DNA of 10,285 nucleotides from positions 1 to 10,285 of the forward strand of contig JBHLMQ010000081.1 in the NCBI GenBank assembly GCA_048938005.1, in the 5' to 3' direction. Numbering within the stretch: the first letter of the stretch is position 1; each line of letters opens with the position of its first letter. Positions 3,860 to 10,285 of the stretch are shown one piece after another. Position numbers and translations under genes: made by a program. The DNA comes from Promethearchaeota archaeon (GTDB lineage Archaea > Asgardarchaeota > Lokiarchaeia > Sigyniarchaeales > SOKP01). A model generated the notes under the pieces. The model made no database searches, was not told where the DNA came from, and worked only from the letters and a program-made list of their open reading frames with translations.

Positions 3860-4171
3860 ATGAAAATTTTCGAATGGGTCGAAGAAATCGAGAAAATTTA
3901 TAAAGATTTAATTGATAAAGCGAAGAAAGAAAATCTTGCTGAATTAGAAAATCTAAGATCTGAGCAAGAAAAGAATATGGAAAAAAGGATTAAAAACAAT
4001 CGTGAAATGGTTGATTCAGCTTTAAAATTACTCTTAAAAAAATTAAAAGATGAAGATATTTTTATTACAGAAAAATTAAACGATTTTAAAAAAAAAATGG
4101 AAAAAGAATATCAAAACTCTAAACAAAATTTAGGTGAATTAATAATAAAAGATATTGGATTTGATTTTTAA
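3860..4171 (+). CDS. atpH: Probable peripheral-stalk subunit H (G-like)
   Basis: 103-aa charged coiled coil (EEIEKIYKDLIDKAKKE...) with a hydrophobic C-terminal helix. Size fits, and it is the only subunit otherwise missing from the operon. AGGT upstream of the ATG. Confidence 0.7.
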   Translation: MKIFEWVEEIEKIYKDLIDKAKKENLAELENLRSEQEKNMEKRIKNNREMVDSALKLLLKKLKDEDIFITEKLNDFKKKMEKEYQNSKQNLGELIIKDIGFDF

Positions 4172-4491: not shown

Positions 4492-4504
4492 GAGATGTAG
4501 GGCT

Positions 4505-5227
4505 ATATCAAACATTAATACATTAAAAGAAAGATTTGGGAGACTTGGATTATATCTTATTGAAAGAGCTAAAGATGAAATTAAACTTATAGATCAGCAG
4601 ACTCTCTTTCAAATTGCAGAAATAAAAAAAAAGTATAGAGAGAGAATAGTAGATAATTCATCAAAAATTAAAACGAATTTTATTGAAACTTATAATAAAC
4701 GTTTAAATAACGCCTTATCTTCAACTCTTCTAAAAATAAAGGAAGAAACGTTGAATGTTAAAAACTCTTTAATTTCAAAACTAATTATAGATTTAAATCT
4801 AATATTGGAAAAGAAGATAAAAGATAATTATACAAATTACCTAAAATTTTTATTAGGAATATTTAAAAAAATTAAACATTTAATAGATAAGCCCCCTGAA
4901 ATCGTTATAAATTTAAATTCAAAAGATTATGAATATTTTATTAAGAATTTCGATAGAATTCAAAAGATTTTTGAAAATAATGTGACATTAAATCCTTCAA
5001 AAGAAGAATTTATAGGGGGTTTTAGAATTTTACAAACTAAGATGAATATTTCTTATGATTTTTCAATTACAAGTTTAATCAATAAAAAAAGATCCCTAAT
5101 TGAAATTGAATTTTCAAAAATCTTTTCAAATATTTATTTAGAAATTAACGAAATAATACAAAACTACGAAAAATTCGTCCAGAATCAAAAACTGGCTATA
5201 AAAGAATATTTAAAAAATTATGACTAA
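4505..5227 (+). CDS. atpE: A/V-type ATP synthase subunit E; start probably non-canonical (ATA 4505, or ATT 4514)
   Basis: The frame is open from 4487 (after TAA 4484-4486) to 5227. The part upstream of TTG 4751 encodes the expected N-terminal coiled coil (SNINTLKERFGRLGLYLIERAKDEIKLIDQQ...). The C-terminal domain has the E motifs INLNSKD, FIGGFRI and YDFSI. The exact start is uncertain. Confidence 0.85.
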   Translation: MSNINTLKERFGRLGLYLIERAKDEIKLIDQQTLFQIAEIKKKYRERIVDNSSKIKTNFIETYNKRLNNALSSTLLKIKEETLNVKNSLISKLIIDLNLILEKKIKDNYTNYLKFLLGIFKKIKHLIDKPPEIVINLNSKDYEYFIKNFDRIQKIFENNVTLNPSKEEFIGGFRILQTKMNISYDFSITSLINKKRSLIEIEFSKIFSNIYLEINEIIQNYEKFVQNQKLAIKEYLKNYD

Positions 5228-7070
5228 AGCTAACGAAAAAGTATATGAAGAGCTTACTTCTGGTTATATATCCGCAATAAATGGATCATTAATTGAAATA
5301 AAAGGATTTGAAAAGGAAGTTCGCATTCACGACTTGATAAGAGAATCTGAACATAATATTTTAGGAGAAGTGATTCAGATTTATTCAAATCACGTAACTG
5401 CTCAATGTTTCGAAAATACAGATAATTTAAAACTTGGTGAAAAAGTAGTTAATTTAAAAGAACCATTATCAATGGAATTGGGTCCTGGATTATTAGGTAA
5501 TGTTTTCGATGGTATTCAAAGACCATTAGATACCACTTTTCAAAATACTCATAAAGGCTTTTTAGATAGAGGTAATGATTTACCATCATTATCAAGAACT
5601 AAAAAATGGCATTTCAAACCACAAAAAAAAGTTGATGAGAGAGTAAGTAGTGGAGATATAATTGGAACTGTACAAGAGACTTTTTTAATTGAACATAAAA
5701 TATTAGTACCAATTGGAATCTCAGGAAAATTGAGTTATATTGCATCAGAAGGTGATTATACGATTAAGGATGAAATTTATCATGTGAAGGCTAAAAACAG
5801 TGAAAAATCATTCTCAATGATGCAAAAATGGCCAATCACTAGAAGTAGACCTTATAAAATGCGAATAAGCCCAACTGAACCATTAATAACAGGTATGCGT
5901 GTAATAGATCTATTATTTCCTATAGCAAAAGGAGGAACTGTTGCAGTACCAGGGGGATTTGGGACTGGTAAAACTGTTATACAACAATCTTTAGCAAAAT
6001 GGTGTAATGCTGATGTTATTATTTTTGTTGGATGTGGAGAACGAGGAAATGAAATTGCTGATGTTTTAAAACAATTTTCGGAAATTACTGATCCAAAAAG
6101 TGGAAGACCATTGTTAGATCGTATAACACTAATTGCTAATACATCAAATATGCCAGTGTCTGCTCGTGAAGCAAGTATTTTTTCAGGTGTTACAATTGGC
6201 GAGTATTATCGCGATATGGGGTATGATGTTGCAGTACTAGCAGATAGTACCTCAAGATGGGCAGAATCTTTACGAGAGATTTCAGGCTTATTAGAAGAAA
6301 TGCCGGCTGAAGAGGGATATCCTGCATACTTACCATCAAAAATCTCAAGTTTCTATGAAAGAGCAGGAGTTGTAAATATTTTAGGGGAAAATAATTCAGA
6401 TAAAGAGAGATTAGGTTCTTTAACGATAATAGGCTCAGTATCCCCCCCATCTGGAGATTTTAGCGAACCGGTTACAGCAACAACTAAACGTTTTGTCCAA
6501 GCTTTTTGGGCACTAGATGCTAACTTAGCTTATTCTAAACATTATCCCGCTATAAATTGGTTAAATTCGTATTCAAATTATCCAGATTATATAATTGATT
6601 GGTGGGCTGAAAAGGATATCTTTTGGTCTGAGATAAACGTTGATTGGTATGAAGCTAGAAACCAAATAAATAACATTCTTTCACAAGAGAATGAATTAAA
6701 AAATATAATGCAATTAATTGGTGAAGAAAATTTACCTGAAGATCAGCAATTAATTCTTTTTATTACAAAATTGATAAGAAATGGTTATTTAATACAAAAT
6801 GCTTTTGATGATATAGATAATTTCACGAATGTCAAAAAATTAATAGGACAGATTAAATTAATTCTTCTATTATATAAACAAGGGAAAGAATTATTAAAAT
6901 CGGGGTATTTAATTGAAGATATTAAGAATCTTGATGTGATCGATGACATTTTAAGAATTAGTTATTCGATTTCTAATGATGATTTTTTTAAAATCGAGAA
7001 CTTAAAGAAAAAGTTAGTAAATGAAGTAGAATCATTAAAGTTATCATATGGAGTTTCAAAAGAGAAATGA
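5220..7070 (+). CDS. atpA: A/V-type ATP synthase catalytic subunit A
   Basis: 616 aa; Walker A GGFGTGKT (5952-5975), [46 protein letters not shown]. Overlaps the atpE stop by 8 nt. No intein. Confidence 0.98.
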
Positions 7071-8458
7071 GTATAATATATGGGAAAATACAGCAGATTG
7101 TTGGACCTTTAATATTCTTAAGTAATCAACATGATGCACAATATGGAGAGATAGTTAAAATTATTACAAATGATGGAATGGAACGCACTGGTCAAGTTGT
7201 AAAAATAAATGAAGAGACCATAATAATCGAAGTATTTGAAGATACAGGTGGGTTATCTTCAGAAAATTCTAAAATTCTTTTCACAGAAGATTCATTTAAA
7301 GTTAAGATCTCAAATGATATGTTTGGTAGAACATTCAATTCAATTGCAAAACCAATTGACATTAATACTAAGAAGGTTTTAGATTCTGAACTAATAACAG
7401 AAGTAGAGCGTGATATTAATGGTACTCCTATTAACCCATTTGCGAGGGATTATCCTTCGGAAGTCATACAAACAGGTATATCAGTAATAGATGGGCTTTT
7501 TACCCTAATAAGAGGACAAAAACTTCCAATATTTAGTGGGCAAGGAATGCCACATAATGCATTAGCCGCTCAAATTGTTACTCAAGCAAAAGTTTTAACA
7601 GAAGAACCTTTTTTAATTATTTTTTGTGGAATAGGAATTATTCAAGATGAAGCGATTTATTTCTTAAATAGATTTCAAGAAAGTGGAAACATACAAAACA
7701 TTATTTCTTTTATTAATTTTGCGGATGATCCTATAATGGAGCGTTTAATCATTCCTAGGGTTGCATTAACAACAGCGGAGTATTTTGCTTTTGATAAAGA
7801 TATGCATGTTCTTGTTATTTTAATCGATATGACCAATTATGCAGAAGCTTTAAGAGAACTCAGTTCAGCAAAAGAAGAGATTCCTAGTCGAAAGGGTTAT
7901 CCTGGATATTTATATACTGATTTCGCATCTATTTATGAGAGAACAGGTAAAATAAAAGGTAAAAAAGGTACAATCACTCAGATACCAATTCTAACAATGC
8001 CAAATGATGATATTTCCCATCCAATTCCAGATACTACAGGATATATAACTGAGGGACAATTAGTTCTTAATAGAAATTTACATAAAACAGGAATATACCC
8101 TCCATTTGAAGTCTTAGCTTCTATATCTCGACTTATGAAGGATTCTATTGGCAAAGATACAACAAGGGAAGATCATAAAGATATAAGTTCCCAATTATTA
8201 GCATCTTATTCAAATTCCCTTGAAGTTAGAGATCTTATTTCAATAGTGGGAGAAGATGGGTTAACCTTTAATCAGAGAGCTGATTTAAATTTTGGACAAA
8301 TTTTTGAAAACAAATTTTTGAACCAGGGAATTGATGAAGATCGAGATTTTTCAGAAACATTTGGTATTGCATGGACTGCTTTATCTGAAATACCTAAAAA
8401 TCAGTTATTCAGAATTCACCAAAACTTAATAAATAAATATTATAAAGAAAAGGTGTAA
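7067..8458 (+). CDS. atpB: A/V-type ATP synthase subunit B
   Basis: 463 aa; RGQKLPIFSG, DMTNYAEALRE, PSRKGYPGYLYTDFASIYER, MPNDDISHPIPDTTGYITEGQ. ATGA overlap with atpA. Confidence 0.98.
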   Translation: MSIIYGKIQQIVGPLIFLSNQHDAQYGEIVKIITNDGMERTGQVVKINEETIIIEVFEDTGGLSSENSKILFTEDSFKVKISNDMFGRTFNSIAKPIDINTKKVLDSELITEVERDINGTPINPFARDYPSEVIQTGISVIDGLFTLIRGQKLPIFSGQGMPHNALAAQIVTQAKVLTEEPFLIIFCGIGIIQDEAIYFLNRFQESGNIQNIISFINFADDPIMERLIIPRVALTTAEYFAFDKDMHVLVILIDMTNYAEALRELSSAKEEIPSRKGYPGYLYTDFASIYERTGKIKGKKGTITQIPILTMPNDDISHPIPDTTGYITEGQLVLNRNLHKTGIYPPFEVLASISRLMKDSIGKDTTREDHKDISSQLLASYSNSLEVRDLISIVGEDGLTFNQRADLNFGQIFENKFLNQGIDEDRDFSETFGIAWTALSEIPKNQLFRIHQNLINKYYKEKV

Positions 8459-8464
8459 AAAACA

Positions 8465-9115
8465 ATTAGTTTTAGAGAATTTAAACCCACAAAAACAAAT
8501 TTAATTAATTTACAGAAAAAACTAAATTTTGCTATAAAAGGAGAAAGTTTTTTAGAGTTGAAACAAGAACAATTGATATTTGAAATCAAAACCTTATGGA
8601 ATGATTACAAAAAACAGCGTAAGAAATTTCTAAATTTATTAATAGAAGTTATGATCAAATTTCACCAAACTTATAAAGAAATGGGTAAGAATAATTTTAA
8701 AATTATTAGTAGTTTGAGTAAAATTCAATTTAAACCATCAATTAATATCAAATATATTAAAAAAATCGGAAATGTCGTACCCGATATAGAGTATGAACTT
8801 ATAAAAGATGAACTCCTTCCCGCCTATTCCTTTGAATATACGAGCCATTATTTAGACGATTTGATAACTATGTTAACATCACTTTTTAAACGAATTATTA
8901 GTTTATCCGAAATTGAAGATATTATGTTAAAACATTCTCTTAGCTATAAAAAAATAACTAGAAGGATCCATGGATTAGACAACATAATTATTCCTGCCCT
9001 TAATTCAGAAATTAAAAAAATTAAAGATATCTTAGAAGAACTTCAAAGAGAGAATTTTGTAAGATTAAAAAATACTAAAGATTTAATTTATAAAAAGAAG
9101 ATAATTAATATGTGA
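8465..9115 (+). CDS. atpD: A/V-type ATP synthase subunit D (central rotor); probable ATT start
   Basis: In-frame sequence upstream of TTG 8558 encodes SFREFKPTKTNLINLQKKLNFAIKGESFLELKQEQL, the conserved D N-terminus (PT..L..LK..L..A..G..LL..K...L). SD-like AGGTG at 8451-8455. C-terminal ITRRIHGLDNIIIP and LEELQRENFVRLK. Confidence 0.92.
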   Translation: MSFREFKPTKTNLINLQKKLNFAIKGESFLELKQEQLIFEIKTLWNDYKKQRKKFLNLLIEVMIKFHQTYKEMGKNNFKIISSLSKIQFKPSINIKYIKKIGNVVPDIEYELIKDELLPAYSFEYTSHYLDDLITMLTSLFKRIISLSEIEDIMLKHSLSYKKITRRIHGLDNIIIPALNSEIKKIKDILEELQRENFVRLKNTKDLIYKKKIINM

Positions 9116-9120
9116 TTTAG

Positions 9121-10285
9121 ATGACGAACAAGACAGTAATGTGTTTATTCGATATTAGCATTCGCAATAGTTATAAAGATCTTCTATTGCAGGAATTGTC
9201 TCAAATAAATTTAATTCATATAAAACCAAAACAAAAAACAGAGGAGAGTCAAAAGAAATCAGATAAAAATCTTGAAAGAATCAAGAAATTAAGAGTTAAT
9301 CTAGAAGATTTATTTAAAGCTCTTAAAATCTCGGATTACGATTTACAGAATTTGCAAACAAAAAAAAGTGAAAGGATAGAATTCAAAGTGAAAGATATTA
9401 ATGAATTAATAACCCATACATTAGAAGAAATAGATTTTTACAACAATCGTGTTGCAGAATTAGAAAGATATATGGCAAAAGCTAAAATTGAACTAAATAA
9501 GATGAAAACGATTGAGGAAAGTTATAAGTTCTTGGAGAAAGTTAATCTTACTCGAGATAACTTATCATACTTAAATCAATTAGCATTTAGAGTTTTCATA
9601 ACTTTTTCCAAAAATTTAATTAATGTAAAAAATCTTTTTGAATTCTCAAAATTTCCAAATTTCTATGAAACACAAGAAATTTCAGATGATAGAATCGTTT
9701 TTTATACCATGTATCCATTAGATAAAGAAGATGAATTAAAAGAAAGAATTCGCATAATTCACGCTGAAGAAATCCCAATCTTGAAAAAATATTTACTTGC
9801 TGATGGAATAAATTTTACAAGGATACATAGTGAGATTAACTTAATAAATAATACACTTGAAAAGTATGAGAAAGAATTAGAGAGACTCAGAGATGATAAT
9901 ATAATATTATTTGCCGCTATGCATGAAATAGTTACAAATATTGAAGAATATAATTGGGCTGAGCGGCAATTCGAAGATATATCATCTAATCGATCACAAC
10001 TCCAATTTTTTATTCCAGCGAATAATAAGGCATCCATACAACAAAGATTAATGGATGTTTTTAAAGATCAAATCACAATCCATTCAGTCGAAATTTCTAA
10101 AAAACCGCTTGTAATTTCAGAAGAAAAAGAACAGGAATTAAATTTAAAAGAACCTATTCGTAATCAACCTTTTAAGAGCGAAGAATTAAAATCAAATGAA
10201 CAAGAACCAGATAAAGATTTGAGGGATGAAACCCCACGGATTATGAAAAATAATTTTTTTGTGAGACCTTTTGAAACTTTAACTA
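9121..10285 (+). CDS. atpI: A/V-type ATP synthase subunit I (a), N-terminal soluble domain; truncated by the window edge
   Basis: Read manually and absent from the ORF track. ATG 9121 opens a frame with no stop to the end (388 codons): MTNKTVMCLFDISIRNSYKDLLLQELSQINLIHIK...ETPRIMKNNFFVRPFETLT. The end matches the subunit I motif PPT.L.N..F..PFE.L that precedes the membrane domain. Confidence 0.93.
   Translation, partial: MTNKTVMCLFDISIRNSYKDLLLQELSQINLIHIKPKQKTEESQKKSDKNLERIKKLRVNLEDLFKALKISDYDLQNLQTKKSERIEFKVKDINELITHTLEEIDFYNNRVAELERYMAKAKIELNKMKTIEESYKFLEKVNLTRDNLSYLNQLAFRVFITFSKNLINVKNLFEFSKFPNFYETQEISDDRIVFYTMYPLDKEDELKERIRIIHAEEIPILKKYLLADGINFTRIHSEINLINNTLEKYEKELERLRDDNIILFAAMHEIVTNIEEYNWAERQFEDISSNRSQLQFFIPANNKASIQQRLMDVFKDQITIHSVEISKKPLVISEEKEQELNLKEPIRNQPFKSEELKSNEQEPDKDLRDETPRIMKNNFFVRPFETLT

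Follow-up and report, generated by a model that had tools for sequence, protein, structure and literature searches.

The window analysed here, a whole contig (C42) of 10,285 bases from the draft genome of a Loki-type Asgard archaeon (G000; 3.72 Mb, 101 contigs, 29.8% G+C), carries on its + strand an A/V-type ATPase operon, whose genes were identified by Pfam in the order c (proteolipid), C, F, E, A, B, and D. We studied the translation start of the subunit D gene, atpD, which directly follows the genes for subunits A and B and is predicted to begin with ATT at position 8465. Below, ATA, ATT, and ATC are referred to collectively as ATH (AUH in RNA), and ATG, GTG, and TTG as canonical start codons.

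The start of atpD and its conservation

The open frame of atpD spans 8459 to 9115 and has the same phase as atpB. At its 3' end, atpB reads GTG TAA (TAA at 8456-8458), and this last sense codon is itself part of the Shine-Dalgarno (SD) site of atpD (Table 1); the tail of the 16S rRNA, ...GGATCACCTCCT, is located on another contig (C41). There is no ATG, GTG, or TTG between the atpB stop and the conserved N terminus of D. The first of these codons to appear is TTG 8558, which is the start that gene callers restricted to canonical codons would choose for atpD. The peptide KPTKTNLINLQKKLNFAIKG is encoded between the atpB stop and this TTG.

The 218-amino-acid (aa) stop-to-stop frame belongs to the Pfam family ATP-synt_D (PF01813; E 1.5e-32; 113.5 bits versus a cut-off of 25.7), with residues 14-207 matching profile positions 1-195 of 196, and 20 residues of the domain lie upstream of TTG 8558. 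Because the domain aligns from residue 14, the start of D must be found within the first 13 codons of the frame (AAA ACA ATT AGT TTT AGA GAA TTT AAA CCC ACA AAA ACA), among which ATT 8465 is the only one that lies one base from ATG. In the protein started at this ATT, profile positions 1-190 are aligned from residue 12.

We then searched for D in 41 related genomes, obtained a match in 36, and compared 30 loci, 21 from the same genus and nine from outgroups. At the place of ATT 8465 (the I of I-S-F-R-E), all 21 same-genus loci have an ATH (ATA in 11, ATT in 6, and ATC in 4), and each of these loci has a GGTG at most 20 nt upstream, with a spacing of 6 to 10 nt in congeners. In 19 of the 21 loci, the stretch from the upstream stop to the aligned ATH is free of canonical codons; of the other two, one has a TTG well up in a leader of 21 codons, and one has a GTG that belongs to the GGTG itself. 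The outgroup loci, from other genera of the order, have a canonical codon at this place in all eight readable cases (ATG 6, GTG 1, TTG 1), and their D proteins are headed by M-S-F-..-K-P-T at the aligned codon; the ninth locus ends at a contig edge and is outside this count. Further downstream, the codons for the N-terminal K-P-T-K differ synonymously among congeners (e.g., CCC/CCA/CCT and AAA/AAG). In the three closest relatives, D lies behind an in-frame leader of 11 to 32 codons, and both the ATT and the preceding GGTG are retained.

The comparison of sequences thus confirms ATT 8465 as the predicted start of atpD, and with it what an earlier note on this DNA had claimed. The note had placed atpD in the frame of atpB, right after its TAA, and all of its coordinates are correct; it had located the conserved N terminus of D between that stop and TTG 8558, where the Pfam domain does extend; and it had named ATT 8465, behind AGGTG, as the sole plausible initiator, which inspection of the codons and of the relatives bears out. 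The N-terminal misannotation that the note had foreseen is real as well. The D proteins of relatives in NCBI have 216 aa and begin M-SFREFKPTK at the conserved ATH codon, whereas the JGI, ENA, and Logan gene calls of D have 197-203 aa and begin inside the domain. One NCBI D protein of a close relative (P0002; locus L002, genome G016) has 227 aa; it starts from an ATA that lies 11 codons before the conserved ATT, inside the end of atpB, and is probably an over-extension.

The earlier note had also counted atpE as a second gene of the operon with a non-canonical start, and its ATA at 4505 is borne out by the relatives. The open frame of atpE extends from 4487; TTG 4751, the earliest canonical codon in it, is codon 89, and a start there would cost 82 residues. 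Pfam vATP-synt_E spans residues 27-198 of the stop-to-stop frame. The counterpart of ATA 4505 (in K-I-S-E-E-K) could be read in 18 of 21 same-genus loci and is ATT in 15 and ATA in 3. Two of the remaining three have an Ile at this place, and one has TTT, with an ATA two codons upstream; two more same-genus loci, which are outside the 21, are without the N terminus. Among seven outgroup loci, the aligned codon is ATG in six and TTG in one. A minimal start-stop pair, ATG-TAG, lies out of frame at 4495-4500, 5 nt before the atpE ATA.

Three open reading frames (ORFs) of the window gave no Pfam match at E up to 0.01. These are a 388-aa open-ended ORF after atpD (9121-10284, + strand), which is possibly the N-terminal part of subunit I, although this place would be unusual for it; a 103-aa coiled-coil-like ORF between C and F (3860-4171, + strand), possibly subunit H; and a 491-aa ORF on the opposite strand (450-1925, - strand).

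Table 1. Features of the atpD and atpE starts and of the aIF1 gene (positions refer to the window unless a contig is named)
Feature	Position	Strand	Remarks
atpB, A/V-type ATPase subunit B	7067..8458	+	ATG 7067, 463 aa; Pfam ATP-synt_ab (1.2e-74), ATP-synt_VA_C, ATP-synt_ab_N
Shine-Dalgarno site AGGTG of atpD	8451..8455	+	complementary to the 16S rRNA tail
ATT, predicted start codon of atpD	8465..8467	+	9 nt behind AGGTG
atpD coding sequence, re-annotated	8465..9115	+	216 aa + stop
TTG, earliest canonical codon in the atpD frame	8558..8560	+	codon 34 of the open frame; internal Leu, residue 32 of D
ATA, predicted start codon of atpE	4505..4507	+	ATH in 18 of 21 same-genus loci
atpE coding sequence, re-annotated	4505..5227	+	240 aa + stop
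aIF1 (SUI1) gene, ATT start	contig C41, 34030-34032; Pfam match 33742-33957	-	no canonical start before the zinc knuckle

ATH starts across the genome and the genus

Confident canonical starts in this genome number 1119 (ATG 778, TTG 234, GTG 108) and have a modest GGTGAT signal upstream. As a test for further ATH starts, leader length alone proved weak: among 3214 coding-like ORFs, leaders of at least 30 codons without a stop or canonical start were found in 123, compared with 62 and 82 in two control frames, and this test was replaced by a scan anchored on the SD site. To this aim, every GGTG in the genome was located and each codon 4 to 9 nt behind it was taken as a candidate start. To pass, a candidate needed an in-frame stop no more than 12 codons before it and a positive codon-usage score; its frame had to stay open for 100 codons or more, and the 15 codons that followed it had to be free of canonical starts.

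The scan was passed by 52 of 3780 canonical candidates, by 46 of 6807 ATH candidates, and by 72 of the 57402 candidates with one of the other 58 codons, which is a 5.4-fold enrichment of ATH over these other codons (Fisher p 7e-16). Six unrelated control motifs gave ratios of 0.6-1.3, and motifs overlapping the SD were intermediate. Both start classes had their spacing peak at 7 nt, with 24 canonical and 25 ATH passes versus 10 for the other 58 codons, out of 462, 1059, and 9606 candidates at exactly this distance, respectively; the peaks of the other codons, at 1, 4, 10, and 13 nt, correspond to neighbouring codons in the frame of a 7-nt start. When the filter against canonical starts was left out, 41 ATH and 38 canonical candidates passed at 7 nt. 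Genome-wide, starts behind an SD occur at spacings of 4-10 nt.

Broken down by codon, the pass rates at 7 nt were 13/322 for ATA, 12/172 for ATG, 10/491 for ATT, 9/226 for TTG, 3/64 for GTG, and 2/246 for ATC. The other near-cognates were not enriched at this distance (CTG 1/74, ACG 0/58, AAG 1/210, AGG 0/263). Only the third base of the start codon is relaxed. The genome-wide use of ATA, ATT, and ATC behind an SD, which the earlier note had proposed to count, is therefore found both in the enrichment and in the shared 7-nt peak. Its broader suggestion of relaxed start selection stands for frequent AUH behind a strong SD and fails as a general loosening, given CTG, ACG, AAG, and AGG.

The 46 ATH passes correspond to 39 ORFs, 29 of which have a Pfam match. 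In 17 of the 39, the start of the domain precedes the earliest canonical start by 10 residues or more, and the match opens at profile position 1-5 in 16 of these and at position 43 in one (DUF6144). Besides DUF6144, the domains are two Ras-like GTPases, NTP_transf_3, Thiolase_N, Phosphodiest, Usp, ATP-synt_D, AFOR_N, ThiF, ABC2_membrane_2, DsrE, CTP_transf_like, DUF134, Response_reg, FAA_hydrolase, and GCHY-1. One further ORF, a DEAD-like helicase, has matches solely below the cut-off. In samples of other genomes, likely orthologues or homologues of the phosphodiesterase, Usp, and cupin genes have an ATG exactly opposite the ATH, and those of ThiF, MptA, and a Ras-like GTPase have an ATG or GTG within one or two codons of it; three genes retain the ATH in a second genome of the same genus. 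An upstream ORF on the same strand ends no more than 30 nt away in 11 of the 39 ORFs, and 25 of the 39 have none within 150 nt, which argues that translational coupling is not generally needed.

From these data we estimate that about 150 genes, or about 5% of all genes, are started with ATH. The estimate combines the excess of leaders over the control frames (187 versus 126 per control frame when leaders of 25 or more codons that lack both stops and canonical starts are counted among the 3214 ORFs) with the probability of 0.39 that a real protein has no canonical codon among its first 25.

The ratio of canonical to ATH passes at 4-9 nt, 52:46 in this genome, was 10:11 in 0.8 Mb of the second same-genus genome (G006), 19:5 in 1.2 Mb of a genome from another family with a comparable base composition (G032, 31% G+C), and 11:3, which is the control level, in 0.4 Mb of one from a third family (G033, 54% G+C). 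At 7 nt, the genus had 32 ATH and 26 canonical passes, versus 2 and 16 in the outgroups (Fisher p 0.001). AT pressure alone does not account for this difference between the genus and the outgroups. Further ATH-started genes were seen in G006 (L258 and L261): for example, an ATC stands before IVKHRGYRTKTRHK, which looks like part of a ribosomal protein, and another ATC stands before the P-loop of a small GTPase. In this closed genome, parts of the aIF1 and atpE loci (L036, L142, L230) are masked as runs of N, and both genes are unreadable there.

Initiation mechanism, aIF1, and alternative explanations

We consider it very probable that atpD is translated from AUU 8465 and that AUA, AUU, and AUC about 7 nt behind a strong SD constitute a regular class of starts in this Loki-type (Promethearchaeota) genus. 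The 30S subunit would be placed by pairing of the 16S tail (…CACCUCCU) with the AGGUG that overlaps the last codons of atpB, and the ordinary Met-tRNAi (anticodon CAU) would then pair with AUU despite the mismatch at the third base. As the atpB stop is 6 nt away, ribosomes that have just terminated on atpB may re-initiate at this AUU as well. Such AUH starts would serve about 5% of genes; among the ORFs located exactly 7 nt behind GGTG, their share would be about half. The first residue of D would still be Met, and the weak codon would be expected to lower the yield of D relative to B. The weak start might even set D at one third of B; because atpE, which encodes a multi-copy subunit, uses ATA too, we keep this tuning of the D:B stoichiometry as a mere possibility.

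The initiator tRNA, which the earlier note had suggested inspecting, is ordinary. Its gene, on contig C41, shows the hallmarks of archaeal initiators, A1-U72 and an anticodon stem with three G-C pairs; the anticodon CAU sits in a normal loop, CUCAUAA. No initiator tRNA with an anticodon other than CAU was found by ARAGORN in a tRNA set that is incomplete at 25 genes (9 without and 16 with the intron option). As the initiator tRNA is ordinary, SD-anchored initiation with a tolerated third-base mismatch is the simplest mechanism. An intron of 32 nt interrupts the initiator tRNA gene at position 40/41, and the genome also encodes a tRNA-SeC (TCA); many of the tRNA genes are probably rich in introns or missing from the assembly.

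The gene for the initiation factor aIF1 (SUI1) has an ATH start of its own. In this genome its earliest canonical codon is codon 55 of 107, which is inside the SUI1 domain; the domain starts at codon 28, and the zinc knuckle precedes it. Across 79 related species, the start is ATT in 75 and ATC in 3, at one conserved place behind aGGTTGTGA, and 78 of the 79 have no canonical start before the zinc knuckle, the remaining locus being cut by the end of its contig. The aligned codon in other genera of the order is ATG, GTG, or TTG, and ATA in one (G030). These species thus conserve a non-canonical start on the gene for a fidelity factor, as is found for infC. An in-frame start-stop pair, TTG-TGA(-TAA), precedes the aIF1 ATT and is conserved across the genus; it and the pair before the atpE ATA may belong to the SD site or to a regulatory start-stop element.

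The earlier note had suggested that the relaxed starts may reflect altered fidelity of aIF1 or aIF2, a cause that is hypothetical. An alignment of 5 sequences from the genus and 8 from outgroups shows aIF1 to be intact and conserved. It has genus-specific substitutions, e.g., K to T/R before RKWG, with no interpretable loss of function, and the sole pointer to aIF1 is the ATT start of its gene. In PMC4705826, aIF1 of S. solfataricus is described as discriminating against AUU in vitro, bacterial IF3 as autoregulated through the AUU start of infC, and eukaryotic eIF1 as autoregulated through a weak start context. By analogy, the AUU start of the aIF1 gene suggests an infC-like autoregulation of aIF1. 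That aIF1 would also set the cell's tolerance of AUH is more speculative than this loop itself. We offer only tentatively, as a possibility somewhat less likely to hold than to fail, the view that in this Lokiarchaeial family the stringency of start-codon selection has been reset, with AUH as a third start class (about 5% of genes and half of those with the best SD) and with the set point held by an autoregulatory loop of aIF1.

Other explanations of the atpD locus have to be weighed against a start at ATT 8465. D might start at TTG 8558, the 31 codons upstream being an untranslated leader that is open by chance. TTG starts are common in this genome (234 of the 1119 confident starts), leaders of at least 30 codons arise by chance in about 2% of the control frames (62 and 82 of 3214 ORFs), and the non-NCBI public gene calls of relatives take such downstream starts. 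However, a start at TTG 8558 would remove profile positions 1-20 of the D domain, and the region before it shows conservation at the protein level, with synonymous changes, across 21 congeners and also in outgroups, where it is headed by an ATG. Nor is the downstream canonical codon fixed among relatives, in which the truncated versions of D begin MNLQ, MGLQ, MLKK, or MSLQ. An open leader of the atpD type is rare, yet possible by chance; conservation and the domain match settle the reading of this leader as coding, and its being untranslated is so improbable that we regard it as excluded for practical purposes. An assembly or sequencing error with ATG as the true codon could be suspected in a metagenome-assembled draft of 101 contigs with 7% contamination. 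The earlier note had judged independent errors less likely, and rightly so: Logan contigs from four studies spanning 8452-8472 have no alternative letter at 8465-8467, and the aligned codon is an ATH in 21 of 21 congeneric species. The chance of an error is vanishingly small, and for practical purposes it too is excluded.

The position of atpD, in phase with atpB and beginning 6 nt after its stop, would also suit a re-initiation that is independent of the codon, or a read-through of the atpB TAA that yields a B-D fusion, and 11 of the 39 ATH ORFs lie within 30 nt of the stop of an upstream ORF. Yet in the three closest relatives the leader separates D from the stop while ATT and GGTG are kept, and the 21 loci have their ATH at exactly the same codon, which re-initiation at any codon would not need. 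Together with the 25 ATH ORFs that have no upstream ORF within 150 nt, this makes such an origin of D very unlikely. Similarly unlikely, in our judgement, is a dedicated initiator reading AUH, through a modified C34 on tRNAi or a second initiator-like tRNA, with which the first residue could be Ile. It would fit the use of all three AUH codons and not of near-cognates differing at the first or second position, a pattern that mitochondria share, and tRNA detection was incomplete. The single initiator tRNA found is nevertheless ordinary, the only Ile tRNA found has the anticodon GAT, and no candidate gene for a special initiator was seen by ARAGORN among the 25 tRNA genes, tRNA modifications being invisible at the DNA level. 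Initiation at AUU 8465 by the ordinary initiator tRNA behind a strong SD is the explanation that we prefer.

Several points nevertheless weigh against this explanation and its extension to the genus. The spacing of 9 nt between the SD and the start of atpD departs from the genomic optimum of 7 nt. Ten of the 39 ATH candidates have no Pfam match, and at least 2 of these appear non-coding. The figure of about 150 genes leans to the upper side, as broken genes could add to the leader excess. The comparison with outgroups draws on small samples from one genome per family (1.2 Mb, and 0.4 Mb at 54% GC); the set of 25 tRNA genes is incomplete and leaves some room for a special initiator; and the putative autoregulation of aIF1 is an analogy only.

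Implications and comparison with known systems

ATT, ATC, and ATA are listed among the starts of genetic code table 11, and single genes started with AUU are classical. The single start of atpD is accordingly ordinary, and NCBI already annotates it; what stands out is how widespread such starts are in this genus, together with the ATT start of the aIF1 gene. A literature search, with subscription journals outside its coverage, returned no paper describing AUH starts as frequent in Asgard archaea and none on an aIF1 gene started with AUU. By our estimate, gene callers limited to ATG, GTG, and TTG cut short or overlook 150 genes in each genome of this genus; the core genes affected include those for ATPase D and E, aIF1, small GTPases, AFOR, ThiF, and MptA, some of which the NCBI pipeline recovers. 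Because ATH heads about half of the ORFs that lie at the best spacing from GGTG, annotations based on canonical starts under-count SD-led genes; SD sites are described as rare in Lokiarchaea in two reviews (PMC12993045, PMC7531240). With a conserved AUU on the aIF1 gene, cultured Loki-type archaea offer a direct way to test how the self-regulation of eIF1/aIF1 originated.

Like aIF1 here, bacterial infC, the gene for IF3, has an SD-led AUU start that is conserved across species and heads the gene for a factor that rejects non-canonical starts. Unlike in bacteria, however, the factor in this genus is unrelated in fold to IF3 and is instead the homologue of eukaryotic eIF1. The AUU starts of E. 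coli are a handful, whereas here AUH heads an estimated 5% of genes. The rare alternative starts of table 11, of which E. coli pcnB is an example, involve the same codons, the same dependence on a good SD, and an ordinary initiator tRNA, and they differ in frequency: 7 nt behind GGTG in this genome, ATH (25) equals the canonical codons (24). In animal mitochondria, likewise, only the third base of the codon is relaxed and all three AUH codons serve as starts; these organelles have no SD, read AUA as Met, and have a modified tRNA-Met, whereas the archaeon has the standard code and SD-led starts. Eukaryotic eIF1, finally, is a homologous fidelity factor that is likewise made from a weak start site, as stated in PMC4705826; the weakness resides in the context of the AUG in eukaryotes and in the codon itself in the aIF1 gene of this genus, where the regulation is putative.

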